Of a DNA stretch of 64,000 nucleotides, positions 17,373-35,400 are shown piece by piece. Position 1 is the stretch's first letter, and each line of letters begins with the position of its first letter. The notes beneath the pieces were generated by a model that was not told the origin of the DNA, searched no databases, and worked only from the letters and a program-made list of their open reading frames with translations. Source of the DNA: a virus (taxonomy: Duplodnaviria; Caudoviricetes); IMG/VR virus record IMGVR_UViG_3300013121_000029, positions 133,595 through 197,594 of that record, one strand, 5' to 3'. The position numbers and the translations under genes were made by a program.

Positions 17373-17980
17373 ATTATACTCTGTTCAAAAGAAGAAATCA
17401 AGATGGAGTCCCTAGCAAGATTCAAACTACTAACTTTTGCTCTCAATCATGTGCTGCTAAATTTAACAATAAATTACGTCGTAAACATCCTATTAAACCA
17501 AAACAATTTACCCCTGCTAGTGGACCATATACATCAATAAAATATAAACAATGTAATATATGTAATAAATGGTTCTGGAGTGTTAAGAAAAATACATATT
17601 ATAATAGATTGTGCTCTGATAATTGTTTCTATGTTCAGAAAAAACGGAATTGTACAGGTCGTAAGTTTCACATTTATAAAGATTGTTTATTTGAATCAAA
17701 TTGGGAAGTTATTATAGCAACATTTTTCGACGACCACAACATTGCATGGACCCAACCTGATCATTCTATTAAATGGATCGACAGTCGAGGAAAATCACAC
17801 AAATATTATCCTGATTTTTACCTTCCTACTCTTAACATATATGTAGACCCGAAAAATCCGTATGTGATAAGAAAACAACAAGAAAAACTAGCAGCAATAG
17901 AAAAACTATCATATATTCATTTAATATATGGTGATATAACCAAAATTAAATACGAAATATTAAATTTGGCGAAGAAGTAG
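17363..17980 (+). pseudogene. 5'-truncated Cys-rich PD-(D/E)XK (TnsA-like) endonuclease
   Basis: FCSQSCAA, ESNWE, YYPDFYLP..N.YVDPK; no convincing start or RBS; 5' part overlaps an antisense tRNA 3' fragment. Confidence 0.6.
17404..17434 (-). pseudogene. tRNA 3'-end remnant
   Basis: GTAG-TTTGAAT-CTTGC-TAGGGAC-T-CCA (degenerate T arm, acceptor strand, CCA). Confidence 0.5.
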
Positions 17981-18051
17981 GAATTTAACCCACACAAAAC
18001 AGTGCCATGGACACCGTTAAGTAATTCCCAATCGTTATTGGAATTTCCCTC
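17967..18051 (-). ncRNA. atypical tRNA-like RNA with CAU loop
   Basis: GAGGGA/TTCTTC-G-CCA acceptor; 7-bp stem AACGGTG-TCCATGG-CACTGTT; T arm GTGGG-TTAAATT-CCTAC; long D-position hairpin. Confidence 0.5.
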
Positions 18052-18430
18052 ATAAAAACTTTTCTGTTAAGTAATAATGAATATCTGGTGATCTCATCAA
18101 AGATATAGAAGCATTATTAATTTCTATTTTGTAATAGAGATCACTTAACATTAAATACTTAACATGACCTTGATTACAATAACTTTGTATAACATCATTA
18201 TGTTCATACCAAAAATCATTAATGATATGTTGTAATGCACCATTAATTTGTGCTATAATTAAAGGTTCATTTGAATGAGTTAACCATATTCCTTCACTCA
18301 TTTTATTACTTAACCAATACATAATTTGTTGATCAAGTTTTTTAATATAGCCAGCAATTGCTTTGTTTGCACGTGGACGAAGTTGTTCACAAATATAACG
18401 ATCTCGTTCTGCTACTGACATATTTTTCAT
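18050..18430 (-). CDS. hypothetical protein
   Basis: 126-aa ORF between RNA genes. Confidence 0.6.
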   Translation of the reverse strand: MKNMSVAERDRYICEQLRPRANKAIAGYIKKLDQQIMYWLSNKMSEGIWLTHSNEPLIIAQINGALQHIINDFWYEHNDVIQSYCNQGHVKYLMLSDLYYKIEINNASISLMRSPDIHYYLTEKFL

Positions 18431-18437
18431 ATAAGTC

Positions 18438-18516
18438 GTGGGGCCTCGTTACTAAATCTACTTGAGATAACACAATCGGTCAGGCGCTCTTAACATAGGT
18501 TAAGCCATTAACCCAC
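18438..18516 (-). ncRNA. candidate structured ncRNA (about 80 nt)
   Basis: Terminal GTGGG/CCCAC stem, CTTAAC/GTTAAG hairpin, noncoding, GC-richer than flanks. Confidence 0.45.
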
Positions 18517-18525
18517 AAATTTGTA

Positions 18526-18637
18526 AAGCGTTAGCAAGGACATCTGGTATTTGACCACCAAGTTCTTTGGAACACAGGACTTAACTCGAGTATATCCTGC
18601 TGTAGCTCACCTTGTGGAACCTGAACCATTAACGCTT
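18526..18637 (-). ncRNA. candidate structured ncRNA (112 nt), cloverleaf-like
   Basis: 8-bp terminal stem AAGCGTTA/TAACGCTT enclosing four hairpins. Confidence 0.5.
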
Positions 18638-18646
18638 AAAACAATC

Positions 18647-18794
18647 TGGTAGAATCTTCGATTCTCTTACCTACACTTGGGTAGACCAGGAAAAGTGAAC
18701 GGCGTACGCAAACATTCGGTACCAAATGTTCGAGAGTATTTCTACTCACCACGTTCAACAGGCTTAATAGGCTGTTACCTGTTTGCTACATTCT
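18647..18794 (-). ncRNA. candidate CCA-terminated ncRNA (about 148 nt)
   Basis: AGAATGT/AGATTCT-A-CCA ends; internal stems AACAGG/CCTGTT, GAACG/CGTTC, GAGTA-GAAA-TACTC. Confidence 0.5.
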
Positions 18795-18839
18795 TCTCAC
18801 ATCTAACAGCATCTGTGGAAGTATCGTCTTCAATTTTTC

Positions 18840-18915
18840 TGGTTGCCATAGCAAGGATCGAACTTGCGACCAAACGAATATGAATCGTTCGCTCTACCAA
18901 CTGAGCTATATGGCA
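18840..18915 (-). tRNA. tRNA-Met (CAU)
   Basis: Canonical cloverleaf, AACGA-TT CAT AT-TCGTT, encoded CCA. Confidence 0.9.
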
Positions 18916-18923
18916 TTATCAAC

Positions 18924-19063
18924 TATCACTAGCCTTCTAGTTATGGCCTATCTACATTGCCGTGTTTCGGTTTGTGACCGTCACGTAATTGCGGTTAGGG
19001 CAGCTTATTCCCCTTCCTACGATACCAATTAGCGAAATTCTCAAATGCATAATTGGAGTGATA
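18924..19063 (-). ncRNA. candidate structured ncRNA (140 nt)
   Basis: 7-bp terminal stem TATCACT/AGTGATA; arms CCAATTA/TAATTGG, CGTG/CACG, GGCC/GGCT. Confidence 0.5.
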
Positions 19064-19079
19064 CAACTCTTTAAAAAAC

Positions 19080-19153
19080 TGGTAGTCCTGACACGATTTG
19101 AACGTGTGTATCAACTTTATCAGAGTTGTATTCTACCATTGAATTACAGGACT
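19080..19153 (-). tRNA. tRNA-Ile (GAU)
   Basis: CAACT-CT GAT AA-AGTTG; CCA end. Confidence 0.9.
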
Positions 19154-19158
19154 ATATT

Positions 19159-19692
19159 TTATTTATTCAAATATGGATAAGCAATATCCATTATTTCTTG
19201 TTTTGTGTAATTTCTCGATACTGCGTTAGTGCAAACTATAGTCCACAACGATCCGTTTGGACCTGGTAAATTGTCGATATACCCACCTAAATATTTCATA
19301 TATCTTCTCATTATGAAATTATAGATACGCATTCTTTTATCTGTGTGATCTATCGCTCCAAATACTAATCCATCAAATCTAAAATTAGGTATTTCATTTT
19401 TAATAGCATTAAAAATAGCACCAATAATTGCTGCAGATTGTTTATTATTTAATGTAGCCTTATGTGACCATTCTTTTAATTCTTGATTCCATATTTGGAA
19501 ACTAATATGAAAGACCTCTAATTCTTTTATTGGTAATAGATCCAATCGAATTTGATATTCATGTTCACCAGAAGTAAACCGACCAATCTTATTACCATCA
19601 TTGTCTATTGTCCACTTAGTATTAATTTCTGTATTCAATACTTCAGTTAAATTAATTTTAAATTGTTCTTCGACTATTTCTTCCAATTTCAT
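19159..19692 (-). CDS. MKLxE-family late protein, paralog 1 of 3 in tRNA cluster
   Basis: MKLEEIVEE; TATAAATA upstream; RMRIYN motif. Confidence 0.8.
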   Translation of the reverse strand: MKLEEIVEEQFKINLTEVLNTEINTKWTIDNDGNKIGRFTSGEHEYQIRLDLLPIKELEVFHISFQIWNQELKEWSHKATLNNKQSAAIIGAIFNAIKNEIPNFRFDGLVFGAIDHTDKRMRIYNFIMRRYMKYLGGYIDNLPGPNGSLWTIVCTNAVSRNYTKQEIMDIAYPYLNK

Positions 19693-19752
19693 TTACTATC
19701 TCAAGTTTTTTCATAATTATACTTTATTTATAAAATGAAAACAACTTCTATT

Positions 19753-19827
19753 TGGAGCCCCCAGCCAGAATTGAACTGACAAGTACGGATTACAAAACCG
19801 TCATTTTACCATTAGAATTATGGGGGC
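19753..19827 (-). tRNA. tRNA-Thr (UGU)
   Basis: ACGGT-TT TGT AA-TCCGT; CCA. Confidence 0.88.
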
Positions 19828-19832
19828 AAATG

Positions 19833-19907
19833 TGGAGCGTCCACAGAGAGTCAAACTCTGTACACATGAGTGGAAGTCATGTATGTAATCACCAACACCT
19901 TGGACGC
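19833..19907 (-). tRNA. tRNA-Gly (UCC)
   Basis: CATGA-CT TCC AC-TCATG; CCA. Confidence 0.88.
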
Positions 19908-19960
19908 ATTAATCTCTCGGGAGGCTGCATCCTCCCTTCACTCAACAACAATTTGCAGCG

Positions 19961-20137
19961 TTATTGAGTAGTATTCTTTCTACTTTTAATTCCATCAATT
20001 ACACGTCTGATCATATCAACTCCATTAGCCATGCAACCATCATCGTCATCTGGAATAAAAATATAATCCTCACTAGCAAATACCCATCCGTCCTCTAACA
20101 ATAATTGTTTATCTTCCTGTGATATTTGCTTACTCAT
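19961..20137 (-). CDS. small hypothetical protein (58 aa)
   Basis: AAGGA RBS, MSKQISQEDKQLLLEDGW... Confidence 0.55.
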   Translation of the reverse strand: MSKQISQEDKQLLLEDGWVFASEDYIFIPDDDDGCMANGVDMIRRVIDGIKSRKNTTQ

Positions 20138-20154
20138 CTTTATTTCCTTATAAT

Positions 20155-20230
20155 TGGCACCGGCGATGGGAATCTAACCCACCTCGAACTAGTAGACAGC
20201 TAGTTGCCCTCAACAGAGTGCTACGCCGGT
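20155..20230 (-). tRNA. tRNA-Asp (GUC)
   Basis: ACTAG-CT GTC TA-CTAGT; CCA; T loop TTAGATT. Confidence 0.85.
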
Positions 20231-20239
20231 ATAAAAACT

Positions 20240-20313
20240 TGGTAGGACTGCATGGTACCACCCCATGTTCTCAAAGTTAAAAGCTTTGTGCATCATTTTA
20301 ATGCTTCAATCCC
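20240..20313 (-). tRNA. tRNA-Lys (UUU), non-canonical D/T loops
   Basis: CAAAG-CT TTT AA-CTTTG; T loop GGTGGTA; D loop lacks GG; CCA. Confidence 0.8.
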
Positions 20314-20319
20314 ACAATT

Positions 20320-20394
20320 TGGTGGAAACAATAGGACTTGAACCTATAACGCGCAGCTCTTCAGGCTACCGCTCTACCATTGAGCTATGTTTCC
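20320..20394 (-). tRNA. tRNA-Phe (GAA)
   Basis: GTAGC-CT GAA GA-GCTGC; CCA. Confidence 0.9.
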
Positions 20395-20403
20395 GTAATT
20401 CTA

Positions 20404-20910
20404 TTATTTATTTAATAATGGATAAGCAAGTTCCATTATTTCATCTTTTGTAAAGTTTCTTGATACTGCTGGAGTACATACTATAGTCCATAAAGATCCA
20501 TTTGGACCTGGTAAATTTTCAATAGTATTTCCTAAAAATTTTACATATCTATAAGCAATACGATTATATATTCCCATTCGTTGTTTAACGTCCTCAACAG
20601 CTCCAAACACTAATGCGTCAAAATTGTGTTTATATACTTCGTCTGATATCGCATGAAATATAGCACTTATCACTATTATTGCTTGTTTATTAGACAATGT
20701 TGCTGTAATCGACCAATTATTATTAATTACATCCCATTTATCAAATCCGATCTGAATTACGTTAAAATCTTCTATTGGTAAACGTTGTAAATGAATTCTA
20801 TATTGATCTTCCCCACTTACAAATGTTCCGATTTTGTTACCTTTGGCGTCTGTTGTCCAGGTAGTTGGCAGTTTTGTATTTAATGTTTCGGCCAATTCTC
20901 TTAATTTCAT
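20404..20910 (-). CDS. MKLxE-family protein, paralog 2 of 3
   Basis: MKLRELAE; shares NLPGPNGSLWTIVCT.AVSRN with 19159-19692. Confidence 0.8.
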   Translation of the reverse strand: MKLRELAETLNTKLPTTWTTDAKGNKIGTFVSGEDQYRIHLQRLPIEDFNVIQIGFDKWDVINNNWSITATLSNKQAIIVISAIFHAISDEVYKHNFDALVFGAVEDVKQRMGIYNRIAYRYVKFLGNTIENLPGPNGSLWTIVCTPAVSRNFTKDEIMELAYPLLNK

Positions 20911-20955
20911 ATCTTATTTCCGTAATTCTTACACACGAGCTCATCCTACTGTGTT

Positions 20956-20988
20956 GTCAGTTGCAATAGACCACTCTGCCATACTTCC
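20956..20988 (-). pseudogene. 5' half of a tRNA-Ser-like gene
   Basis: GGAAGTATGGCAGAGTGGTCTATTGCAACTGAC, then no anticodon, T arm or 3' acceptor. Confidence 0.55.
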
Positions 20989-20995
20989 ATATATT

Positions 20996-21086
20996 TGGTG
21001 GGACTGCCTGGATTTGAACCAGGATTTGCCATTTATCTGATGCTACGGAGTATAAACCCGCTACTTTACCGTTAAGTTACAGTCCC
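20996..21086 (-). tRNA. tRNA-Ile (UAU) with long variable region
   Basis: GCGGG-TT TAT AC-TCCGT, about 21-nt variable region, CCTGG-TTCAAAT-CCAGG, CCA. Confidence 0.8.
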
Positions 21087-21092
21087 AAATTC

Positions 21093-21228
21093 ATTTTTCC
21101 TTAACCCTCACCTGTTTCGTCTTGGGTTAGTTGGCCCCGCTAAGAGCCTCATCAACAATCTCCATTAAAGTATTCGGTTACATTCTCAAAAACAGGAAAA
21201 TCTAACCTAGATTGTTTCAAGGAAAAAT
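21093..21228 (-). ncRNA. candidate structured ncRNA (136 nt)
   Basis: 12-bp terminal stem ATTTTTCCTTGA/TTAAGGAAAAAT; CCTGTTT/GAAACAGG; AATCTA/TAGATT. Confidence 0.5.
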
Positions 21229-21231
21229 ACT

Positions 21232-21756
21232 TTAATTCTTTAATTCGATGGTCGTCAACCATTCTTTAAAATCATCTGTATTTTTTATATTATCAGAAAC
21301 AATAACAGTTCCGATTTTTCCTAATCCTAAAGGAATGTTCTCAATTATTGTTCCCAAATCTTTCAACTTCCATCTAGCAATAGAATTGTAAATCCTCATT
21401 CGCTTGTCTGTATTATCTGTAGCAACAAATATCAGTGCGTCATAATCAAAATAATCTTTTTTCTCATACAATGCATTTACCACTACACCCATAACAACAG
21501 AAGCGGATTTGTTATCATAGGTTGGTTTTGTTGACCATTCGTTTTTATTTTTTATTTGAAACGCTACATTAAGGCAATTAAATTTATTTTGATATACAAA
21601 TGGTTCAAAAAGCACACGATATTGAGCATTATTTACTTCAAAATCCCCACAATATGCTCCCTGATCATGATACCAGTTTACTTCTCTTGTTGCATTAAAC
21701 ACTTCATATAAATCAACTACATATCCATCTGAAGATACTAATTCCTGGAGTTTCAT
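21232..21756 (-). CDS. MKLxE-family protein, paralog 3 of 3
   Basis: MKLQELVSS; DALIF.A.D.TDKRMRIYN. Confidence 0.8.
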   Translation of the reverse strand: MKLQELVSSDGYVVDLYEVFNATREVNWYHDQGAYCGDFEVNNAQYRVLFEPFVYQNKFNCLNVAFQIKNKNEWSTKPTYDNKSASVVMGVVVNALYEKKDYFDYDALIFVATDNTDKRMRIYNSIARWKLKDLGTIIENIPLGLGKIGTVIVSDNIKNTDDFKEWLTTIELKN

Positions 21757-21820
21757 TATATATTAACACCATGTCCTTTCAAATATAAACCTTAAAATAG
21801 TTAGGACTAATTACAATTAG

Positions 21821-21936
21821 TGGCAAATGTGTCCAGCTCTCAGGGTTGGACTCGAACCAACGATGGCTTTCGCACGTGATTAACAGTCACGCCCCTGCTA
21901 CCAACTCGGGTACCTGAGAGCTCGACACACTCACCA
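21821..21936 (-). tRNA. tRNA-Asn (GUU) core (21837-21919) embedded in a 24-bp terminal stem
   Basis: CGTGA-CT GTT AA-TCACG, TTCGAGT T loop; no CCA after discriminator; flanks pair with each other. Confidence 0.8.
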
Positions 21937-21954
21937 ATTACTCTCTTCGAAACA

Positions 21955-22074
21955 TGGTCGGAAATAAAGGATTTGAACCTTTAACCCTTTGCTCGGTCTA
22001 TACACTTTTAATCTACTTAATTGTAGAAATGTACACACCAAAGCAAATACTCTACCCAGTTGAGCTAATTTCCG
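21955..22074 (-). tRNA. tRNA-Pro (UGG) with a 43-nt insert after the anticodon (21995-22037)
   Basis: CGGAAAT acceptor, canonical D/T arms; removing the insert gives TTTGC-TT TGG GA-GCAAA. Confidence 0.75.
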
Positions 22075-22276
22075 TTTAAATAATTTGAGATTCGCGTGTT
22101 TCTCCACCAATCTCCCTAACCATTTATTCAATAATTAGCTACTTTAATTCATTATTGATTGCCTTTCGCAGATCCATTTACCTTAAATATTACTAGCTCC
22201 ATGCATAGGCAATCCGAACAGGCTTCATATTTAAGACCTTCTTTGAAGAAGGCTGATCACATTCGTAAGAAAAATA

Positions 22277-22293
22277 TTATATCTTATTTAGTA
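22277..22293 (-). promoter_or_regulatory. late promoter (CTAAATA) for tRNA block, repeated identically at 28108-28124
   Basis: 17-bp TTATATCTTATTTAGTA duplicated upstream of two RNA-gene blocks; resembles T4 late TATAAATA. Confidence 0.6.
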
Positions 22294-22300
22294 GTTGGGA

Positions 22301-23986
22301 TCAACTTTTTAAATTAGAAATTATTTGTTTTAATAAACCATCCCTTTCAGTCGTTTTAACTTGCTTTCCTTTCAATACGTCTTTAACTAATTGAACATCT
22401 TTTTCCCAATGTTTTTTATCCAACCAAAAATCTTGAATTTTTGGATTAACTAATCTAAAAACATCGCAAATCAAATCAACTAATTCTTGACCATTAAGGT
22501 CATGAGAAAAACTAAATTCATAAGAAGTGCCTTTAAAGCAATTCTTCTTGTGTCCGTCACTAAAAATAAACAATTGAACACCATATTGTTTGTGTTCAAA
22601 AACCCAAACGCCAGGATTACTTTCATACCCTTTCATGGTAACATTTGGTTTTCCGAATTGTGAAACAACATCACCATCCACATAATCAGTCACCAAAAAA
22701 GCCTTAATAAGATCAGCAATTCTAAAATTATATGGTTTCTGTACTTTATGAGACAAGTTAAGCAGAGTTTCTGTGTCTGCTTGTTCTATATCTTTAATTG
22801 TATATTTTTTAGTTACACGAGTAAACATATATAATCTCAATTATTCGACTATTATACTATGTTTATTCGACTAATTCAACTGAAAAAAGTACTTCTTGAA
22901 TTTCAAACCTTGGTGCAACTTTTTCATAATCACTCACAGTAGTACAAGAATCTGGATAACGTGCTCCAAATCTTGTAAACCATGCTCCTTCATAACCATA
23001 ACACTCAGTTGCAATCTTTGCCATATCCTTTGCTTGTTCAATGTGTTCTTCAAATAAAAAGATAGCATCAGTTAAATCATTTGTAGTTACTAACGCACCA
23101 CCGGGAGGAGTAGGTCTAGCATAATCACCACGTAACCATTCCGGAGTAATATGTAATCCATCTACTTCATAATAGCAATCACGTTTGGGATTCATGTTTC
23201 TAATAACATATGCTTTACGACAATTTTTCTTGCTTTCTTTGACTTCAATTATACTAGGCATTGTGTATAGATGAGCAATAGTATTTGCAGCAAGAAAATC
23301 TGTATCTAATTCTCGCATATCGTGAATGTATTCAGATGCTAACAATAATTGTTCCTTATCGAATTCAGTAGGAACCTCAATTTTGTTAATTCTTACATAT
23401 TGTTGATCTTGATCAGAACTCTCTTCTTTATATCTAACCATTTTAGACAAACGTAGCAAATCCTTAATAGACATATCTTCAAAATCTTGGTCGTACAATG
23501 GTATATCTCCGTATGATGAGCGAAGAACAATTTCTCCTCCGCCAAATGTATAAGAACAAATTATACAAAATACATATTCATTATTTTCTTGATAATGAGC
23601 TGTGCCGTCATCATCTAATTCAAGTCCTAATCGTTTACAAATTCGTTCGAATTTATTTTTCTTCATAATAAGTTAAACCATCTTTTTCTATAGTTATGAT
23701 ATATTATCCATCATTTATTAAAAACCCGTTCATAAGAACGAATAGGACTACGATCTTGTTTACAACATTTTACATTAAATTTCCAATCACGATCACGAAG
23801 CAATTCTCGTTGTGTTAGAGCGTTAACAAATAAATTAAGATCACCATCTTCTTCAAGATAAATCGTTTTTCCTTTTTGATAAGAATAAATGCTGATTTGG
23901 TTTAGAATACCAAGCTCGGCCAGATAGTCACGTTTGACAGCTACCCACCCGTGACCTGCATCGACATAATAATTGTATATCTTCAT
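22301..23986 (-). other. three hypothetical CDS (22301-22840, 22863-23666, 23711-23986 DAGHGW/LEEDGD family)
   Basis: ORF track. Confidence 0.65.
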
Positions 23987-25380
23987 ACTGGTTCGATCCT
24001 ACTAAACATTTCTTCGATCTTCATATATCCTTCAACTTTGATCAACTTATCTAAATGATACGATGAAGGTCCGTAGGTTTTATTAACCAAATCCATATAC
24101 ATTGAATACTTTCCTTCTTCAACATGGTACAACCATTCAGGAATAGAACTTGCTTTAAGTTGGTCTAGATATTTTGCAGCCAATGTTGTATCAATACTAA
24201 TTCTTCCGAGCGATTTTGCTTGATGTTGTTCCTCAAGTACAGACAACCATTCGCTTTCATTAAACGTTTCCCAACGTTTGTTTACAACAATTTGTTTATA
24301 TGCATCACCACGACCTGTTGTTTTATATCCAAGTAATGTGACACGAACATTATGTTTATTACACCACGACAATAATTGTTGTAGTTGATACTTGTTAAAG
24401 ATTGCAGGAATGATTTGAATAGTGAATTTCTTCAAATCATAACCACGATAGCTAAAAATATCATAAATTCGTTGTAGAATAGATTCTGAATTGGGACTAG
24501 CACTATAAGCAAATGCCCCTGTACATGCAAGAATTCTCCTTGCACGTCGTTCGTCTTCTAGCCAGTCAGTACTTTTTGTGGTGAAGTTTGCTACTACACC
24601 ATGATATGCTAATGATTCACAAAAACTTTCAAATGATGGACATTGAGTTGGCTCACCACCACCAATTGCTACTTCGAATACGTTTGCTTCTCCAATAGGA
24701 TATGCAGCAGTACATCTATCATCCATGTGCTTTCCTTGCGGAGTGCTTCCTTGATAACAATAAGCACATCCATGAGTACAATAATCAGTAATTTTCGCAT
24801 CAATAAGCAAAGGAGTAGTTGGCTTATATGGTTGTGGGTTATCTTCAAAAGAAAAGATAACACGATTGCCGTTGGTTCTGTCGTACAATGTCCACCATTC
24901 GCCATCTTTACGACATACCATACGAGGTCCTTCAGAATACCAATTCCCGAACGACTTTACTTTTGATTCATCGTATAGATCATGTGTAGTGTCTTCGTTA
25001 TCGTTTCCACCTAAAATAACGACACCATCTCTTAGAAGATATTGGCGAAAGTCGTTGAAAAAATCAATACTGATATTGGTAGTTCCGAAATCATATGGCA
25101 ATGTATATTGTGATTGATGGTCTACATGTTCTTCTGTAGTTGGTAAGTCAAGACCTTTAAGAATTGCTCGAACTAACGGTTGTGAAAAACCTTGAAGATT
25201 TTGTTGGAGCGTAGCTGCCAAATATTCTTCTTTTGCTTCTTTAGATGCTAACGTGAAAAACGACCACCCAAAGTCATAATAATCATCAGTTGCTTTGGTA
25301 ACTGGGTCAAAAATAATACTATGACTACTTGAACTGTTAGTTGCATGTCCTAGTCTAACATTATGAATTTTCATTAGCAC
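23983..25380 (-). CDS. radical SAM protein with N-terminal TNSSSSHS domain
   Basis: CTHGCAYCY (CX3CX2C) and IGGGEPT motifs. Confidence 0.88.
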   Translation of the reverse strand: MLMKIHNVRLGHATNSSSSHSIIFDPVTKATDDYYDFGWSFFTLASKEAKEEYLAATLQQNLQGFSQPLVRAILKGLDLPTTEEHVDHQSQYTLPYDFGTTNISIDFFNDFRQYLLRDGVVILGGNDNEDTTHDLYDESKVKSFGNWYSEGPRMVCRKDGEWWTLYDRTNGNRVIFSFEDNPQPYKPTTPLLIDAKITDYCTHGCAYCYQGSTPQGKHMDDRCTAAYPIGEANVFEVAIGGGEPTQCPSFESFCESLAYHGVVANFTTKSTDWLEDERRARRILACTGAFAYSASPNSESILQRIYDIFSYRGYDLKKFTIQIIPAIFNKYQLQQLLSWCNKHNVRVTLLGYKTTGRGDAYKQIVVNKRWETFNESEWLSVLEEQHQAKSLGRISIDTTLAAKYLDQLKASSIPEWLYHVEEGKYSMYMDLVNKTYGPSSYHLDKLIKVEGYMKIEEMFSRIEPV

Positions 25381-25742: not shown

Positions 25743-25743
25743 T

Positions 25744-26564: not shown

Positions 26565-26639
26565 TTTTGAAATAGTTTCTCTCTTCAACTCTATTATTAT
26601 ACGATGATCAAAAATGAAACTCAAATGAAATTTATTGGT

Positions 26640-26932
26640 TATTGAATATCCACCCACCAACAGTCCTGTGTTTCGAATTGCCCCCTATTTCATCGATAGT
26701 GCATCTTTATATTCGGGTCACACCAGTCTAGCATTTACCCATCTTTTGGATGGTTTATTTCGACTCTGGCATTTATTACAAATAATTACAACACGGTTTT
26801 GTTGCTTTCGTAACCGGACTACCATGTCCTGTTCTCACTTTCAACACCGTAAGTTTCGTTAACACAGTGAGACTTCGGCCAGTCAATAATAGAACGTACG
26901 TCAGACTGGCAATTGAGTACGTTCTTGGTTCA
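26640..26932 (-). ncRNA. candidate large structured ncRNA (about 290 nt) downstream of tRNA-Arg
   Basis: H-type pseudoknot (9 bp + 7 bp) at 26878-26925, several further stems, no credible minus-strand ORF. Confidence 0.6.
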
Positions 26933-26939
26933 CATAATA

Positions 26940-27016
26940 TGGCCTGCTCACCTGGGCTCGAACCAGGAACCTGTGGCTTAGAAGGCCACTGCGCTATCCA
27001 ATTGTGCCATGAGCAG
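26940..27016 (-). tRNA. tRNA-Arg (UCU)
   Basis: GTGGC-CT TCT AA-GCCAC; CCA. Confidence 0.92.
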
Positions 27017-27146
27017 TTTAAACTGTTACAAACTCTTTAATATATGATTATTATATATGATTCTTTATTGTTACTCAACGTTTTTGTTTTGGTAACGAGG
27101 GATCGTTTCGTTGATAAATAATATAATAAAACAGGAAATAAAATAT

Positions 27147-28028
27147 ATGTTTAAATGCCCCGATTGTGAACGAGAATTCGAATCTGTATATCGTCTTAAT
27201 TCTCATAAACGCGTCCACAAACCCAATTATAATAAACGTGCAGGATATGAAAAAGGTGCTGGAATTGCAGCAAATGAAGCATATCAAGCACGTCTCGAAG
27301 AATACGAGAAAAATCCTAGATTGTGTAAAGAATGTTCTATACCATTGCCTTATACTCGAACAAGTAGTAAAAAACAATTTTGCTCTTCATCATGTGCAGC
27401 TTCATATAATAATGCTCATCGCGAAACAAAAACAACTAAAATACGAAATCGTGATAAGCCATTAAGAAAGAAACGTACAATAGTCGAAAAAATTCTTCTT
27501 AACTGTGCAACGTGTGAGAAACAAGTTTACATTAATCCTAGTCTTAAACATAGGAAATGTTGCAGCAAGGAATGTTCACAAGTATATAGAAAACATAATC
27601 TCGAACATAAAGAAAAACTTTCAAAAGCAGGACGTAAATCAGCAGAAAATCAACAAACTCAAAAACGCAGTAAAAACGAAATATTATTTTCAACGTTGTG
27701 TTTAAATAGTTGGCCTGATACTATTTCAAACGTAGCAATGTTTAATGGATGGGATGCTGATGTTATTATTCCATCTTTACGTGTGGCCGTTCTTTGGAAC
27801 GGCCCATGGCATTATACAAAAATAACAAAGAAACATTCAGTAGAACAAGTACAAAATAGAGACAATATTAAACAAAATGAAATAAAAAAATACGGATTTG
27901 TGCCATATGTAATTCAAGACCTGGGTAAATTTAATTCCAAATTCGTCTATGAACAATTTGAAAATTTCAAATTGTTCATAGACGGTCATGTGGTAGCGGG
28001 GGAGAGATTCGAACTCTCGAGGCAATGA
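27147..28028 (+). CDS. free-standing zinc-finger + PD-(D/E)XK (Vsr-like) endonuclease
   Basis: C2H2 finger, FCSSSC repeats, RSKNE...GWDADVIIPSLRVAVLWNGPWHY; GATAAATA upstream. Confidence 0.75.
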   Translation: MFKCPDCEREFESVYRLNSHKRVHKPNYNKRAGYEKGAGIAANEAYQARLEEYEKNPRLCKECSIPLPYTRTSSKKQFCSSSCAASYNNAHRETKTTKIRNRDKPLRKKRTIVEKILLNCATCEKQVYINPSLKHRKCCSKECSQVYRKHNLEHKEKLSKAGRKSAENQQTQKRSKNEILFSTLCLNSWPDTISNVAMFNGWDADVIIPSLRVAVLWNGPWHYTKITKKHSVEQVQNRDNIKQNEIKKYGFVPYVIQDLGKFNSKFVYEQFENFKLFIDGHVVAGERFELSRQ

Positions 28029-28090
28029 GCTTTCGCTCCAAGGCAATAGGTTATGAGCCTATCCGGATACCAGACTTCCGACACCCCGCA
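27991..28090 (-). tRNA. initiator-like tRNA-Met (CAU) with 27-nt variable arm
   Basis: U1-U72 mismatch, GCGGGG acceptor, ATAGG-CT CAT AA-CCTAT, extra GAGC-GAAA-GCTC hairpin, CCA. Confidence 0.8.
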
Positions 28091-28137
28091 TCAAACTTAA
28101 AGAAAAATTATATCTTATTTAGTAAATTGGTACAACA

Positions 28138-28981
28138 TTAAGTAAGTTGTTGAATCAGATCCATGGCATATTTCATTAACCAATATTCACGCATATACGT
28201 AATTTGATACAAATCAATTGCACTAGGAATGAAAATAATCATACCAAAGAATCCACCAATGAGTCTTGATGCAATCCGAGTGCTTGGTATATCTCCACGA
28301 TCCCATTCTCCAGAACCAGCAGTTTCAGGTAGAGATTCTTTCCATTTATTCAAGAGAAATGGAATAATAAACAATCCACTAATCATTATAATCAAACCAA
28401 TCGATACCCATGTTACATACAAATACGTTTTGTATGTGATAATTTGTTCAACTACTACAGGCACATTTGCATTAACAATCGTGGTAATATCGACCATTTG
28501 CTTAAGCAGGTCGGCCATTGATGAAATCAATTGTTCGTTTGCAGTAGTCATGATAGCATGCCCTTAATACGATCTTTCATTGCTTCGCGAACTTTCTCGT
28601 GAGAACAATTAAGGTCATGTTGAAGATCACCAGTGATGAACTTATCGAAATCACCATTGTAGAAATCGTAAAACTCTTGTCCTTCGAGCATACGAAGTAC
28701 TGCATTAACTTGTTCATCGGTGAATGAAACTTTGCTCATTGTTTCCTCTTCAATTCGTTAAGTTCTTTTAACATTTGTTCAAATTCTTCAAACAATTTAT
28801 CAAACTTCATATTATACAATGTCTCTAACCCAATCAATACATTCAATAGTTGATCTTCTGTTAGTCCTTTATCACCATATTGTTGGTATATAACTTTGAT
28901 GTCGTCAGTAATCTGCCAACAACTAAGAATACTTTGTTCAACGTCGAGTTGTTTTGATGACATATAATCTCTCTCTCTCAA
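28138..28981 (-). other. three hypothetical CDS (28138-28551 membrane, 28548-28739, 28736-28981)
   Basis: ATGA-overlapping ORFs. Confidence 0.65.
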
Positions 28982-29081
28982 TTTATGAGTCTATTATACT
29001 GTAGAACGATTGTGAAATCAAATGAATTACATGGGACCTCTTCCATTCGAACTCATAAATACACAAAAGAATAATTACGCA

Positions 29082-29948
29082 ATGGGTAACTTTACATACA
29101 CGGAAGAACAATTATTACAAGAATTAATTGATTTCAATAACACTCACGGAAGACCACCTGCTATTTCAGATTTTGGACATAGAAGTAAAACATTTCGTCA
29201 TAGATTTGGTAGCTGGAATAATGCATTAATTAGAGCTGGAATTTGTACGTTTGAATATCCCAACAAACAAAATCTAAATTGTGATGTGTGTAACACACAA
29301 TATACCAGACCTTCCCATTATAAAAAACACACTAACAATTTTTGTTCAAGAAAATGTAAAGATCATCACGATCAAACATCATTAGAGTATAAATCTTTTA
29401 GAAAAGAAATAGGAACAAGAGTTTTTAGTAAAATAAAAGAAAATATTCCAAAGTATTGTTATATTTCGTTTATTACTTGTAAAGTATGTAATAAGTTATT
29501 TTCAGTACGATCATCAAAACAAGCTAATAACAAAACATGTAGTACAGACTGTCAACGAGTTATATTGTCTCAATCAGGATTGAAAGTATATACTTACAAC
29601 AACAAACGATCTAAAAATGAAATCTCCCTTGGTGAGATATTGTCCTATTATTATCCTGATATATTGTATAATGAACCAATGTTTAATGGTTGGGATGCTG
29701 ATATTATCATACCATCGTTAAAATTGGCAATTTTATGGAATGGAGCTTGGCATTATACTAAAATTACAAAAAAGCATTCTCTCCCTAAAGTACAAAACAG
29801 AGATCAAATTAAAATGAAAGAGATATTAAAGGCAAATTTTTCTTTTATTGTGATTAAAGATTTTAAAAACAAAATGACACCATCACGAGCAGCTCAAACA
29901 GTTGTAGACTTAATTCAGAACCGAATTTACAACTGTTCGATATATTAA
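29082..29948 (+). CDS. free-standing endonuclease, paralog of 27147-28028
   Basis: FGSWNNAL repeat, Cys fingers, RSKNE...MFNGWDADIIIPSLKLAILWNGAWHYTKITKKHS; ATAAATA upstream. Confidence 0.75.
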   Translation: MGNFTYTEEQLLQELIDFNNTHGRPPAISDFGHRSKTFRHRFGSWNNALIRAGICTFEYPNKQNLNCDVCNTQYTRPSHYKKHTNNFCSRKCKDHHDQTSLEYKSFRKEIGTRVFSKIKENIPKYCYISFITCKVCNKLFSVRSSKQANNKTCSTDCQRVILSQSGLKVYTYNNKRSKNEISLGEILSYYYPDILYNEPMFNGWDADIIIPSLKLAILWNGAWHYTKITKKHSLPKVQNRDQIKMKEILKANFSFIVIKDFKNKMTPSRAAQTVVDLIQNRIYNCSIY

Positions 29949-29950
29949 AT

Positions 29951-30249
29951 TGGTGGGCCTTCTCGGATTCGAACCGAGGACCAAGCGATTCAAGTTTGTG
30001 TTGATTTCTCAACTCCCTGGACTATCCCTTCACCGTACTGTTTTAAATAAGTCTTAGGTGGATGCCGTCTAGTCTCTACACCTTCAAATAATGTTAGTAC
30101 ATTATAAGCTTGGCTCGGGATTGCCTTCAACATTACTTGGTAAGGTTTCCCCGAATTTGACATCTTTTCATCTCAAAGTTTCCTAAGAGAGACACTGTGT
30201 AATGTGCACAATGAGTCGCGTGCTCTTAAACCAACTGAGCTAAAGGCCC
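29951..30249 (-). tRNA. tRNA-Ile2 (CAU), interrupted by group I intron
   Basis: Exons GGGCCTT...GCGACTCAT | AATCGCTTGGTC...GGCCCACCA resemble bacterial tRNA-Ile2. Confidence 0.88.
29991..30210 (-). mobile_element. group I (IC3, Azoarcus-type) self-splicing intron, 220 nt
   Basis: GTCAAATTCGGGGAAACC, GAGCCAAGC, GAAGGTGTAGAGACTAGACGGCA.CCACCTAAG, GGTGAAGG.ATAGTCCAGGGAG; U before 5' site with P1 U-G pair; terminal G. Confidence 0.92.
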
Positions 30250-30256
30250 GTTAAAA

Positions 30257-30442
30257 TTAACGACTTACATCCCTTTCTTCATTATCCTCTTCAAGATCAT
30301 CACGAATTTCTTCTGAACAAAGTTGCCTTTCACGACGTTTAACCATACGATCATGCTTTTTTCGTTCGCGTGGAGCAGGTCCGCAACAAACGCAATTACG
30401 TCCGCCAGGACCATATCTTGAGATTTTAGTATACTTTGCCAT
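30257..30442 (-). CDS. small basic Cys-containing protein
   Basis: GPGGRNCVCC...KRRER; GAGGA RBS; structured leader. Confidence 0.65.
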   Translation of the reverse strand: MAKYTKISRYGPGGRNCVCCGPAPRERKKHDRMVKRRERQLCSEEIRDDLEEDNEERDVSR

Positions 30443-30510
30443 TGTTCCTCTCTGACCAGGGGTTGCTTATGCACCCCCTTTTTCTATGGGTCAGCTTACG
30501 CTCACCAGTA

Positions 30511-32454: not shown

Positions 32455-32499
32455 AGTATTTCTCCTCTTTATACGTCTATTATACAGTAAACATATTTG

Positions 32500-32928
32500 T
32501 TACACAATTATTTCACGATGACCATTCAAGATAACATCTTGAAACTTTACAAGATTTCGTGAATCCATATAAATATTTCCAGAGATTTGTGATTCTCCAC
32601 AAATTACTACCCTACCAGTAATAAATGCATTTCCACCAACAATACTATCATGTGTAATAATTGCATTACCAGTGATAGTTGCATTTCCAAAAATAATAGC
32701 ACCACCTCTTATTTGTGCGTTAAATCTAACATTGGCATTATCTTTTACGACAGCATCATGATAGATCCAAGCACTTCCCTCTAAATTATGATAACCTTGA
32801 ACATACCCACCTAAACTGTCTTTAGGAACTTTGTTTGGTATATCATGAATGGCACGAATACGAAACACTCCTTTTATATGAGGGTGTTCGATATCAGTTA
32901 TTACATATTTTTGTTGTGAAGAAGTCAT
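32500..32928 (-). CDS. left-handed beta-helix (hexapeptide repeat) protein
   Basis: RIRA...LGGYV...NL..SAWI, then NA.V/GNA.I hexapeptide repeats. Confidence 0.75.
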   Translation of the reverse strand: MTSSQQKYVITDIEHPHIKGVFRIRAIHDIPNKVPKDSLGGYVQGYHNLEGSAWIYHDAVVKDNANVRFNAQIRGGAIIFGNATITGNAIITHDSIVGGNAFITGRVVICGESQISGNIYMDSRNLVKFQDVILNGHREIIV

Positions 32929-33077
32929 TGCTCAATTTGTGTTTGAGGATCAGGAACAGGAGCAGGCAGTTTGTTAGTATCTGATGCTCCCCCAATGATC
33001 ATACAAATTACAAATACGGTTATCTCGATCATATAAATTCTCTCTATCATATCTCATTAATACGTTGAAAAAGATTC

Positions 33078-33765
33078 TTACTTAATAACTTTCATTCCTT
33101 CACCAGAAAGCAAAGGGAATATCACGATTTCTTGCAGTCTTTTCACTGTTTTTGCATTGTCGATCTGAGCCAAAAACATAGGACTCTTCTCTTTCCATTT
33201 CCAATTCATGACAGCATCTCGTGCAAATTCACGAGCATCTTCGAGTTCTTTTGGCCAATTATTTTGATTTACAAACTTGGAAAGATCGAATGCTTGATTC
33301 TCATCTTTCGATTTATTCTTCGTCGCAGTCTTCTTCGTCATTGGTATTCCAATCTCCAGTGTTAATAACAATATTACGATTAATTACGAACACGCCATCT
33401 TGCGTTCGTGACACTTCAAAATCACGAGCAAACGTTTCGATTCTCCCCAATTTTTTCGATTCAATAGCCACGTCATCGGTAAGAGCAATGGGAATTACCC
33501 CAATCATTCCTGCATCAACAGGATAATTGTATCCTTCATTGTCTTCAAAACTTCCATCACCAAAAGCTGTGGAAGCGGCAAACAATTCGTGACCCTCATA
33601 GGTACAATATCCTTCAGTACACTCATCAGTATCTGAAATCAAACCAGTCTTATACAAGAAATCCATCCACAACTCATGGTTCTTAGTACCTACTACGTAG
33701 CAAGGATCACCAATATAATATTGGCCAGCTGGCAACATAATAGCAATGTCATTTTTCCTGCTCAT
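33078..33765 (-). other. two hypothetical CDS (33078-33371; 33313-33765 GDPCY/VDAG family)
   Basis: ORF track. Confidence 0.65.
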
Positions 33766-33788
33766 AATATTTCCTCTTTGAGAATCTA

Positions 33789-34529
33789 TTATACATTAGA
33801 ACGAAAATATGTTTCAACGTTAGGACGAATGCGATCATAGTAAACTCGTGCAAGTTGAGTGTTATTCAACTTACACTCCAACATAATATCCACTAGAATC
33901 GAATTGGTAGATTTGTGAAGACGATTAGAAATCAATCCAGCAATTTTCGCTTCCAACACTCGTTCTTCCTTTGACTTAACACTCAACCGCATCCTGCAAC
34001 ACCTGGTTGTCAAAGTTTGTATATTAAGAAACTGTCGCTTAGTAAGCATAATTTTAGTACCACAACCAAGACAATAAGTAGTCTCAGTGCGCTTATTACG
34101 TACAGAAGCGTTAGTTACATCATAACTGTGACAACGCTTGGGATCTTGTCCCATCGTCCTCATGACATGCTTCCACTCAGGGCCATGAGGGGCCAGATGA
34201 CTTCCGTACAACGAATCGGTAACAATATGGCACAATTCGTGTGGAACAGTAGAATGCAAATATTTTTGCTCATTCTCATGATACAAAATTACATTAACTT
34301 TAATTGCATTCTTGTGATAAAATGCTTGACCTCCGATCTGACCACGAAGATCAAATTCCAACGTAGGAATCGGACGAGTGTACTTCGGAAACAGAAGACG
34401 TGCTCGATTATAATAAAATTGGAGTGTTTGACGGATTTTCTGTTCCAATTCAATAGCGCGTTCAGCAGAGACATATTGATTGGGTTGAATGTTATTAATC
34501 GACACTCTATCTCTCCTCAATTTATACAT
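33789..34529 (-). CDS. sprT: SprT-like zinc metalloprotease
   Basis: LRGQIGGQA, HELCH, PHGPEWKHVM, RCHSY, C-terminal Cys ribbon. Confidence 0.85.
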   Translation of the reverse strand: MYKLRRDRVSINNIQPNQYVSAERAIELEQKIRQTLQFYYNRARLLFPKYTRPIPTLEFDLRGQIGGQAFYHKNAIKVNVILYHENEQKYLHSTVPHELCHIVTDSLYGSHLAPHGPEWKHVMRTMGQDPKRCHSYDVTNASVRNKRTETTYCLGCGTKIMLTKRQFLNIQTLTTRCCRMRLSVKSKEERVLEAKIAGLISNRLHKSTNSILVDIMLECKLNNTQLARVYYDRIRPNVETYFRSNV

Positions 34530-34575
34530 CTATTATACATGATCACATATTGTCAATCAAATGTTATAATAAACA

Positions 34576-34603
34576 AAAAAAGGACAGTTAATACTGTCCT
34601 TTT
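34576..34603. terminator. intrinsic terminator
   Basis: AAAAAAGGACAGT-TAAT-ACTGTCCTTTT. Confidence 0.8.
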
Positions 34604-34609
34604 AAATTA

Positions 34610-34668
34610 GGGCACGCACTCTCTGCAAGGGGAGGAGGGAGGAGGGATACCTCACAGAGAGGGTGCAC
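34610..34668 (-). ncRNA. hairpin RNA with CCUCCUCCC (anti-Shine-Dalgarno) loop
   Basis: GC-rich stem closing loop UAUCCCUCCUCCCUCCUCC, directly before terminator. Confidence 0.5.
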
Positions 34669-34673
34669 AACTT

Positions 34674-35180
34674 TTATACTTCTTTCTCTATTGAATATGG
34701 AATTATCTCTGTATTATTGATAATATCATTAATTATACTTAATTGATTTTTTCGTTCAAATTCATCGACTACTAACAATCCGCCATGTATTTTGACATGA
34801 CAATTTCTACACACTGCGACGCATTTTTGCAATTCTTCGAAAGTTTTTGTTAAATTAAACCCTGAAATTATTGAGATTTCAGTTTCTTTTTCTGTCGGAT
34901 CGATGTGATGAAAATCAATAACAGCTGCATATCCTCTTTCGCTACATAACAAACAACCTACTGTTGTTTTAATCTTATTGATTATTTCGGCATTTCTTGT
35001 TCTGTAGTATAAACTACGATTTCTTGTTTTAACTTTATGTTTGAGATGAAACCCCATTGAATCTCGTTTTCTTTTACAGGGTTTACACGTGTGACAATGT
35101 CCCAAATGTTGGGACTTATCTTTAGTAAACTCGGTTAAGTCCTTTTCTTCTTTACATACACTACAAGTTCGTTTTGTCAT
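34674..35180 (-). CDS. HNH endonuclease
   Basis: CSVC..CKPC, DFHHIDP, KCVAVCRNCHVKIH; CTAAATA upstream. Confidence 0.85.
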   Translation of the reverse strand: MTKRTCSVCKEEKDLTEFTKDKSQHLGHCHTCKPCKRKRDSMGFHLKHKVKTRNRSLYYRTRNAEIINKIKTTVGCLLCSERGYAAVIDFHHIDPTEKETEISIISGFNLTKTFEELQKCVAVCRNCHVKIHGGLLVVDEFERKNQLSIINDIINNTEIIPYSIEKEV

Positions 35181-35240
35181 ACATATTCTCGATTATTTCT
35201 TATATTTAGGGGTCGAAATGATCAAGAATACCATTAGATT

Positions 35241-35326
35241 TGGTGAGGAGAGAGGGAATCGAACCCTCACGGACACTGTCCAAAAGTTTTTAAGACTTTT
35301 TCGGCTACCTATTACGACATCCCCTC
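35241..35326 (-). tRNA. tRNA-Leu (UAA)
   Basis: AAAGT-CT TAA AA-ACTTT, variable arm GGAC/GTCC, CCA. Confidence 0.9.
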
Positions 35327-35400
35327 ATAAACTGTTTAAAGAACTTTTTGATTAATCTTCTTAATCAAGACGATTATTATACTCTATTCTTATATACAAT

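Follow-up and report, generated by a model that had tools for sequence, protein, structure and literature searches.

The window analyzed here, which is the final 64 kb of a 197.6-kb IMG/VR virus record that is 72% complete (IMGVR_UViG_3300013121_000029), probably contains the tRNA island of a large, T4-like phage, with 14 tRNA genes. We think it likely that four odd tRNAs of this island, those for CAU, Ile(UAU), Asn, and Lys, are copies of conserved, atypical phage tRNA lineages, and that its group I intron and three plus-strand endonuclease genes are selfish DNA. Our best explanation for the island as a whole, held with reasonable though not full confidence, is that conserved, atypical tRNA lineages have been remodeled by homing endonucleases, an intron, and gene cassettes and now stand beside two decayed tRNAs. 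Judged from their sequences, most of the island's tRNAs are probably working tRNAs, and the four odd ones look like working tRNAs rather than decoys: the 7-nt anticodon loop is intact in all four families, CCA is encoded in three of the four window copies (all except Asn), and compensatory base changes occur in every cloverleaf stem of the CAU, UAU, and Lys families (alignments A6, A7, and A8, respectively).

The genome has a G+C content of ~35%, and the genes at 17-36 kb of the window lie nearly all on the minus strand. ARAGORN called 12 tRNAs by default and 14 with introns allowed, and Rfam agreed with these calls except for a Leu-CAA at 22376-22464, which is false (24.7% GC, within an open reading frame [ORF]). 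The 13 tRNA genes obtained from ARAGORN and Rfam, all on the minus strand, bear out the number given in a first-pass annotation of this DNA, and a cryptic tRNA-Lys(UUU), likewise on the minus strand, adds a fourteenth; CCA is encoded in 13 of the 14, tRNA-Asn being the exception. The five altered architectures that the annotation had described are all present, namely the extended helix of tRNA-Asn, the insert in tRNA-Pro, the 91-nt tRNA(UAU), the 100-nt tRNA(CAU), and a group I intron. It was also right that the phage has its own CCA enzyme, as one of the CCA-adding type (PF01743) is encoded, together with a T4 Rnl1-type RNA ligase.

Conserved and atypical tRNA lineages

The 100-nt tRNA(CAU) at 27991..28090 has a U1·U72 mismatch and joins a 14-nt variable region characteristic of its family to an extra, window-specific hairpin, GAGC-GAAA-GCUC (28027-28038). 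With a pattern built from this tRNA and its look-alikes in two other loci (L075 and L105), the family comprises 10 viral and 50 metagenome loci. These include a near-twin, L152, that has no insertion: adding a GNRA hairpin of 13 nt to the variable loop of the L152 allele yields the window tRNA, and an independent insertion occupies the same place in the tRNA(CAU) of L161. Family members share a 5-bp D stem and a conserved variable region of 12-14 nt, YGCC-NNNG-UGCCUC. The eight distinct sequences of A6 are 95.9% paired with 13 compensatory pairs, a level reached by none of 500 shuffles. In each of the eight rows, position 1:72 is left unpaired, and metagenome members have U·U, C·A, or U:A there. 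A mismatch or weak pair at 1:72 is a mark of tRNA-fMet, and by this feature the window tRNA (U·U) is an initiator look-alike; the three consecutive G:C pairs of tRNA-fMet at the base of the anticodon stem are absent, the window having A29:U41, G30:C40, and G31:C39 and the other family members varying.

The 91-nt tRNA-Ile(UAU) at 20996..21086 (Rfam 62 bits) bears a variable-arm hairpin with a CAGAUAA loop. Its relatives, 92-94 nt long, adjoin a CAU-family tRNA in at least 11 contigs. When these are aligned with the window copy (A7), 94.7% of the pairings hold and 22 of 25 pairs show compensatory change; the variable arm has a covarying 4-bp stem and a 7-nt loop of the form YWGAUNN.

The third lineage is represented by an 84-nt tRNA-Asn(GUU) at 21836-21919 that has no CCA and carries the variable hairpin GC-GAAA-GC. 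Its flanks pair with each other, enclosing the tRNA in a helix of ~24 bp (21821..21936; minimum free energy [MFE] z -6.1). We compared five sequences by eye, the window copy and its relatives in L108, L111, L173, and L174. The GAAA-capped variable hairpin is kept in all of them, with stems of GC, GCA/UGC, or GCC/GGC around GAAA across the five contigs, and CCA is also missing in three of the four relatives. None of the relatives has the 17-position extension of the acceptor helix, which is thus specific to the window phage. We suggest that this extension might be where a double-strand nuclease, for example RNase III, processes the RNA. A role as a Ro60 docking stem was considered and rejected because its motif is unlike the repeated docking-stem motif upstream of the genome's Ro60 gene, and when the helix-locked tRNA-Asn was examined as a Y RNA of the YrlA type, tRNA was its sole Rfam match.

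The fourth lineage is that of the cryptic tRNA-Lys(UUU), 74 nt at 20240..20313, within an 89-nt spacer between tRNA-Phe and tRNA-Asp that folds as a cloverleaf (z -2.7). It was recognized by a BLAST match to L117 and by a scan for acceptor stems with CCA, in which it was the only new candidate in a noncoding gap. The RNA has G1·U72, A8A9, a 4-nt variable loop, and an encoded CCA; its T loop, GGUGGUA, is non-canonical, and its D loop has no GG. ARAGORN misses it, and it has no match to RF00005 even at E values up to 5, so that it falls short of the Rfam gathering threshold as well as of canonical D and T loops. The four helices of its cloverleaf covary all the same: among the window copy and five relatives found by a pattern scan (A8), the 21 pairs are 100% paired, 10 of them compensatory, and 0 of 500 shuffles score as high. 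ARAGORN calls the relatives in L117, L168, L170, and L171 tRNA-Lys. The relatives retain the D-loop GG and the T-loop UC; both are lost in the window copy, which accounts for the failure of tRNA finders to detect it. Host anticodon nucleases commonly attack tRNA-Lys(UUU). According to published work (PMC10264068), phage tRNAs evade tRNA-targeting defenses, and the atypical tRNA-Lys(UUU) could plausibly be a nuclease-resistant replacement tRNA that would have a role in counter-defense.

Class II-like tRNAs with anticodons other than those of Leu, Ser, or Tyr are known from nematodes as nev-tRNAs (PMC3333845), and non-canonical tRNAs have been reviewed (PMC7609411). The phage CAU, UAU, and Asn tRNAs resemble nev-tRNAs in combining a long variable region with a class I anticodon. 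They differ from them in that their variable regions are conserved and family-specific and in that they retain the identity features of their own isotypes, so mis-charging is not implied. The papers searched on short phage tRNA introns and long-arm initiator tRNAs do not describe these lineages, and only the report on Lak phages discussed below turned up. A long arm is also present on a class I tRNA-Gly(UCC) in the nearest large relative (L009:6980-7070), where the variable arm of ~6 bp contains one mismatched pair and the full Gly identity set is in place (U73, G1:C72, C2:G71, G3:C70).

An ORF-less intron and free-standing endonuclease genes

Another tRNA(CAU), at 29951..30249 and with 1:72 paired, is split after U36 by a group I intron of 220 nt that has no ORF (29991-30210). 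The intron matches RF00028 at 65.1 bits against a threshold of 50, over model positions 1-253 and with its core aligned at high posterior probability. The 5' exon ends in ...CUCAU (U36) and the intron in ...CUUG, and a P1 helix can form between CAU-UGUG and CACA-GUG. ARAGORN labels this tRNA Gln; we rejected that label in favor of CAU with the intron between positions 36 and 37, since under no other reading does the 5' exon finish with U and the intron with G. The intron is predicted to be an IC3-like, self-splicing group I intron.

Three paralogous endonuclease genes lie on the plus strand, every one of them terminating at the 3' end of a CAU-type RNA gene or running into it. Gene 1 (17363..17980; 205 aa) ends at a degenerate tRNA(CAU)-like element at 17966..18048. 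The 3' end of gene 2 (27111..28028; 305 aa) overlaps that of the 100-nt tRNA(CAU) by 38 nt in convergent orientation, and gene 3 (29022..29948; 308 aa) stops 3 nt away from the intron-bearing tRNA(CAU), likewise at the 3' end of the tRNA. All three encode zf-FCS-type zinc-finger modules, which gene 2 combines with a Vsr-like nuclease domain and gene 3 with an HNH_repeat (Pfam PF18780) and a Vsr/I-Bth0305I-like domain. Gene 1 has a PD...DxK-type C-terminus, read as a PD-(D/E)XK-type domain, only weak Pfam matches (TnsA-like_N, E 0.025; zf-FCS), and none of the conserved Vsr-like acidic and histidine motifs of genes 2 and 3, which suggests a domain swap within one family of homing endonucleases.

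The nuclease domain carries conserved acidic and histidine residues like those of the EDxHD family: across 21 sequences (A5), D225, H244, and D280 are invariant, and E200, D227, and D261 nearly so. An AlphaFold model of gene 3 (pLDDT 75) gave weak Foldseek matches to Vsr (1cw0_A; E 6.8e-3, prob 1.00, TM(target) 0.53) and to I-Bth0305I (3r3p_B; E 2.9e-2, TM 0.59). A profile of the endonucleases found 3r3p in the PDB at E 0.07, while phmmer searches of the PDB with them found nothing significant and NCBIfam returned nothing for eight ORFs. Like I-Bth0305I and its EDxHD family (PDB 3R3P), the window proteins are encoded by a phage, have a DNA-binding region at the N-terminus, and conserve acidic and histidine residues, and their C-terminal domain may have the Vsr fold. 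The similarity is weak, whether judged by sequence (E 0.07) or by fold (E 0.03), and the window proteins differ in having FCS/C2H2-type zinc fingers at the N-terminus.

The distribution of these genes points to a particular target. A profile of genes 2 and 3 retrieved 33 IMG/VR loci, and in nearly all of them the gene lies in a tRNA cluster. A tRNA(CAU) or tRNA-Ile(UAU) is found within 71 nt of the gene end in 20 of the 33, compared with a share of 16% for these tRNAs among all tRNAs there. The nuclease domain shows 70-77% DNA identity across otherwise unrelated contigs. Seen from the tRNA side, the gene stands convergently at the 3' end of a CAU-family tRNA, always the same end, in only ~5 of ~45 CAU-family loci, and this sporadic presence at one fixed target, as in the EDxHD family, makes it resemble mobile DNA. 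We read the three genes as free-standing homing endonuclease genes specialized on tRNA(CAU/UAU) genes. The T4 tRNA cluster contains a free-standing homing endonuclease of the GIY-YIG type, SegB, and the stable RNAs C and D. The window resembles a T4-type cluster in that its tRNA genes are interspersed with small ORFs, additional small RNAs, and a presumed homing endonuclease that is free-standing; unlike SegB, its endonucleases are Vsr/I-Bth0305I-type zinc-finger proteins and lie at tRNA(CAU/UAU) genes specifically.

The ORF-less intron and the adjacent endonuclease gene look like a case of collaborative homing. The neighboring endonuclease probably cuts intron-less or gene-less alleles of co-infecting phages, and the cutting would drive the endonuclease gene and the intron into those alleles by collaborative or intronless homing; here we infer both the cleavage site and the protection conferred by the intron. 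Collaborative homing is known from cyanophage psbA, where a free-standing endonuclease and an ORF-less intron share the same target (Zeng, Bonocora and Shub 2009, in PMC3984707). The psbA case and the window agree in that the intron is ORF-less and the gene that it interrupts is immediately flanked by a free-standing endonuclease gene, and relatives extend the likeness. In L081, a tRNA(CAU) is interrupted by a group I intron at the site that is used in the window too (L081:3637-3947; RF00028, 85 bits), with an endonuclease gene upstream, and in L104 (2725-3457) the endonuclease gene lies inside a 661-nt insert or intron of tRNA-Met. Taken together, relatives show all stages, with the gene beside the tRNA gene, beside the ORF-less intron, and inside the intron. 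The window differs from psbA in that its target is a tRNA gene and not a protein gene. The phage group I introns known at the time of a 2014 review were all in protein genes (PMC3984707), and the locus would be a tRNA example of collaborative homing.

The intron can also be compared with the CAU-tRNA intron associated with I-Ssp6803I. Both interrupt the anticodon loop after the anticodon, with an exon ending in U and an intron ending in G; both have a conserved core above the Rfam threshold, and in both a restriction-fold endonuclease is tied to a CAU tRNA gene. The window system differs in its phage host, in the absence of an ORF from the intron, and in the location of the endonuclease gene outside the intron on the opposite strand, and the window endonucleases have no sequence match to I-Ssp6803I. 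Two further RNAs were observed among the related loci. L106 (6222-6536) carries a tRNA-Leu(UAA) that is interrupted by a group I intron (RF00028, 56 bits), as is the case in cyanobacteria, and a phage transfer-messenger RNA (tmRNA; L075:5338-5801; RF00023, 116 bits) ends a tRNA cluster that also holds a long-arm CAU tRNA and an endonuclease gene.

The insert in tRNA-Pro

A tRNA-Pro(UGG) at 21955..22074 (Rfam 54.6 bits; z -4.7) contains an insert that can be placed as 43 nt (21995-22037) after nt 36 or as 42 nt after nt 37. ARAGORN labels this tRNA Thr, but C1:G72 and A73 are better read as those of tRNA-Pro. In the predicted fold, the insert extends the anticodon stem and masks the anticodon. 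Of its first 10 nt, 9 are identical to the corresponding bases at the beginning of the CAU-tRNA intron, which likewise follows nt 36. We estimate a chance probability of ~1e-4 for this agreement. The 3' part of the insert matches the intron core UUGAAGGUGUAGAGAC at 13 of 16 positions in collinear order. The likeliest origin of the insert is the phage's own CAU-tRNA intron, in a copy that has undergone internal deletion. Weighing against such an origin, the core match is not significant by itself, an equally good score being reached by 17% of shuffles. The exons are flawless and show no decay, and other phage tRNA clusters also have hairpin inserts at 37/38, in tRNAs that match the Rfam model over their full length; both points argue against a dead gene or simple pseudogene. 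A repeated mobile hairpin was rejected as a source, the insert being unique in the genome.

We give a small but real chance to a different view, in which this insert and similar 20-90-nt hairpin inserts in phage tRNAs are true introns. Their removal would be ribozyme-free or would use a ribozyme in trans, with an unknown endonuclease or the excised CAU intron RNA cutting and Rnl1, which the phage encodes, sealing. The intact exons of tRNA-Pro, with their full Pro identity set, are in keeping with this, as is the fact that, read as 37/38, the exon ends in U and the insert in G. Insert-bearing, full-length Rfam tRNA matches occur in at least six other phage clusters, and tRNA-His(GUG) and tRNA-Asn(GUU) paralogs in two phages keep an insert at 37/38. 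The known routes of removal fit the Pro insert poorly, however. We searched it for the bulge-helix-bulge of archaeal and eukaryal protein-spliced introns and found a continuous irregular helix without 3-nt bulges 4 bp apart, and neither the endonuclease of that pathway, EndA (PF01974), nor RtcB is encoded in the 72%-complete genome record. On our reading, the register of the helix does not suit the stagger of RNase III; at 43 nt the insert is far too short for self-splicing, and the pair at the cleavage site would be U-A and not U·G. ARAGORN intron calls are, moreover, prone to false positives.

Tipping somewhat toward true introns, inserts in phage tRNAs are already known as a phenomenon from the "enigmatic" introns in tRNAs of Lak megaphages (Devoto et al. 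2019, PMC6784885). As with Lak, the phage tRNA inserts considered here match no Rfam family and follow no known splicing route. One Lak insert may itself encode a tRNA, whereas that of the window is a 43-nt hairpin resembling both ends of the phage's group I intron, and it is as a deleted copy of this intron that we prefer to read it.

Several inserts in the related clusters are of interest in their own right. Five metagenome contigs that also carry a CAU-family tRNA (L122, L130, L132, L139, and L145) have many tRNAs, for Leu, Cys, Lys, Ala, Arg, Gly, and Pro, with anticodon-loop inserts of 27-92 nt, in which a common hairpin is followed by an ACAGCAG motif (for example, L122:3309-3431, L139:6098-6218, and L145:4649-4763). 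These look like a dedicated class of inserts with a recognition motif. A tRNA-His(GUG) (L114:2312-2418) and a tRNA-Asn(GUU) (L111:11973-12075) are clear paralogs with the same anticodon stem, and because both have the hairpin insert at 37/38, starting with GUU, the insert has survived an anticodon switch. A 123-nt tRNA in L109 (447-569), identical in L113 and L115, has a 49-nt insert after its GUG anticodon, and this insert contains a T-arm-like hairpin, GAG-UUCGAUU-CUC.

Spacers, remnants, and competing explanations

The region has ~12 noncoding gaps of at least 50 nt. The first-pass annotation had proposed at least eight further stem-closed, structured elements; one stem-closed RNA survives from that set, the cryptic tRNA-Lys at 20240-20313, and the rest are a mixture of two tRNA remnants with promoters, a terminator, leader hairpins, and five stretches without a family or homolog. 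Infernal searches of Rfam, suggested as a check, gave no family match in any gap at E values up to 5. BLAST, nhmmer, and tblastx searches with all gaps, covering 1.65 Mb of fetched related loci and the rest of the genome, returned only the Lys and Ser matches. The Ser match concerns a decayed tRNA-Ser at 20931..20988, identified by nhmmer (E 0.087 to the tRNA-Ser of L075) and pairwise alignment. It is the 5' part of a class II tRNA, with the 5' strand of the acceptor stem and the D arm intact, the remainder degenerate, and no 3' acceptor strand. The other remnant is the degenerate tRNA(CAU)-like element at 17966..18048, a reading from the sequence that ARAGORN shares only at an 80% threshold. 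It has three hairpins, including one with a UCCAUGG loop and one resembling a T arm, and no proper acceptor stem, and nhmmer found no homolog of it in the same loci. Both remnants are on the minus strand, as are the other noncoding features that follow.

Five noncoding stretches have no ORF, no Rfam match, no repeats, and no homolog at the DNA or protein level by nhmmer and tblastx in the same loci. Three of them fold no better than shuffled sequences: 409 nt 3' of tRNA(CAU) (18431..18839; z -0.3), a 164-nt spacer (18916..19079; z -0.4), and 279 nt 3' of tRNA-Arg (26661..26939; z -1.4). Only the remaining two do fold better, a 145-nt stem-closed element upstream of tRNA(UAU) (21087..21231; z -3.4 on the minus strand versus -1.6 on the plus strand) and the leader between a promoter-like site (22276-22304) and tRNA-Pro (22075..22275), which has a strong hairpin by the tRNA (z -3.7 for 22075-22174). 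Sliding-window MFE z-scores did not separate the large gaps from the coding background, a test of low power because real tRNAs also score weakly, and a repeat scan of 17300-19200 found nothing iteron-like. Just 3' of tRNA-Arg, at 26878-26925, perfect interleaved complements of 9 bp (AGAACGUAC/GUACGUUCU) and 7 bp (GCCAGUC/GACUGGC) form a candidate H-type pseudoknot that is only marginally unlikely by chance across the whole region and has no homolog. At 34578..34673 (z -7.2), a hairpin with a C/U-rich loop (~34610-34668) is followed by a hairpin resembling an intrinsic terminator (34578-34603).

A sigma-70-like motif, TTGATT-17-TATAAT, is repeated in several gaps and precedes several units, which suggests several transcription units. 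It is therefore doubtful that the island is co-transcribed, as had been supposed, and it is probably not one transcript. An identical 18-nt AT-rich motif (of the ACUAAAUAAGAUAUAAU type) occurs at 28107-28124, upstream of the 100-nt tRNA(CAU), and at 22276-22293, upstream of the tRNA-Pro leader, and may be a shared promoter. The ordinary class II tRNA-Leu(UAA) at 35241..35326 has a TTGAAT-17-TATAAT site upstream.

The other tRNAs, called by both ARAGORN and Rfam, are an elongator-type tRNA(CAU) with 1:72 paired and CCA encoded (18840..18915; Rfam 69.1 bits), tRNA-Ile(GAU) (19080..19153), tRNA-Thr(UGU) with tRNA-Gly(UCC) (19753..19907), tRNA-Asp(GUC) (20155..20230), tRNA-Phe(GAA) (20320..20394), and tRNA-Arg(UCU) (26940..27016). 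Among them lie three minus-strand paralogs of a small protein, phrog_6387, the first at 19159..19692 and the third at 21232..21756. The second (gene 20404-20910, within 20390..20929) is flanked by exact 13-bp direct repeats (20390-20402 and 20917-20929; two matches where none are expected), and since one repeat overlaps the 5' end of tRNA-Phe, we regard this paralog as an inserted cassette. The last 45 residues of paralogs 1 and 2 are almost identical, suggesting recent gene conversion, and a profile of all three found no relatives in IMG/VR. Endonuclease genes, a self-splicing intron, and gene cassettes would be the selfish DNA that cut the island up. Between the two groups of tRNAs is a radical SAM protein of 465 aa (23983-25380); its relatives number more than 1,600 and come from metagenomes as well as from Lak, Microcystis, and Thermus phages.

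The first-pass annotation had interpreted the island as a co-transcribed set of tRNA mimics or decoys. Its remodeled tRNAs and at least one unannotated tRNA-shaped RNA have held up, but the single co-transcribed decoy set has not, since the elements comprise conserved tRNA families, selfish DNA, and two decayed tRNAs. We now think it improbable, somewhat more so than true introns in phage tRNAs, that the odd tRNAs and spacers are products of the tRNA machinery that soak up or mislead host nucleases targeting tRNA. Such a function would suit a tRNA-Asn locked in a ~24-bp helix with no free CCA, a tRNA-Pro with its anticodon buried in a long helix, and a phage that encodes both Rnl1 and a CCA-type enzyme; that one of the atypical tRNAs is Lys(UUU) and that phage tRNAs evade tRNA-targeting defenses (PMC10264068) also accord with it. 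The families nevertheless keep canonical anticodon loops and mostly CCA ends, along with such identity elements as C1:G72 and A73 in Pro and the 1:72 mismatch in CAU. Covariation in homologs, which had been named as a check, is found in the cloverleaf stems of the three aligned families (CAU, UAU, and Lys); the five noncoding stretches have no homologs in the loci searched. The extension of tRNA-Asn is missing in relatives and is unlike the Y RNA docking stems of the genome, Rfam gives no match to a Y RNA or another family in the region, two of the supposed elements are decayed tRNAs, and the recurrence of promoter-like motifs points to transcription in several units. For the helix-locked Asn and anticodon-masked Pro RNAs, a non-decoding role may still apply. 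That the whole island is a decaying graveyard, with remodeled tRNAs as pseudogenes and noncoding stretches as dead genes, is very unlikely: there are two clear tRNA remnants, one of them adjoining the diverged endonuclease gene 1, and long stretches without a fold signal, but the CAU, UAU, and Lys families covary and are widely conserved, the Asn variable hairpin is conserved, all stems are intact in the window copies, and tblastx finds no protein-level remnants in the noncoding stretches.

Conserved tRNA lineages remodeled by selfish DNA remain our preferred explanation, and some findings weigh against it. Searches of GenBank phages with the region by megablast and blastn found no close phage and matched only generic tRNA, intron-core, and endonuclease sequences. 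With the nearest relatives, protein identity is 59-63% for the radical SAM gene and 50% for topoisomerase II, and among the 57+2 loci found with these two proteins, of which the closest reach 59% and 50%, synteny in the tRNA region is absent. Because there is no close relative, the Asn helix extension, the extra variable hairpin of tRNA(CAU), the Pro insert, and the five noncoding stretches are beyond comparison. The extra variable hairpin is not explained by immunity of an endonuclease target site, an idea we rejected because the endonuclease-bearing CAU alleles in L111 and L114 have no insertion there. Finally, Foldseek with the gene 3 model gave nothing at E 0.001 or better, and the fold matches of the endonuclease are weak (E 0.007-0.03).

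Phage tRNA clusters are usually taken as simple codon supplements. The four lineages described here break textbook rules of tRNA, in that those for CAU, UAU, and Asn have a long variable region and that for Lys has no canonical elbow loops, and they are widespread in uncultured phages, where some are missed or mislabeled by standard tools. There is also an outside chance, which we rate about as low as that of true introns, that large phages carry a partly orthogonal translation kit and that the hairpin inserts are a new class of tRNA introns. The kit would include a tRNA(CAU) of initiator-like type together with a tRNA-Ile(UAU), the conserved variable arms of both serving as handles by which an enzyme of the phage or host gets hold of them. 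It would also include a tRNA-Lys whose altered elbow lets it evade the tRNA nucleases of the host. The inserts, found here in Pro and in related clusters in His, Asn, Lys, Leu, and other tRNAs, would be excised with no bulge-helix-bulge endonuclease involved; the cutting might fall to an unknown nuclease or to the group I ribozyme, once excised and acting in trans, and Rnl1 would seal the ends. If the variable arms are recognition handles, or if the inserts are spliced, these phages would hold new tRNA biology.

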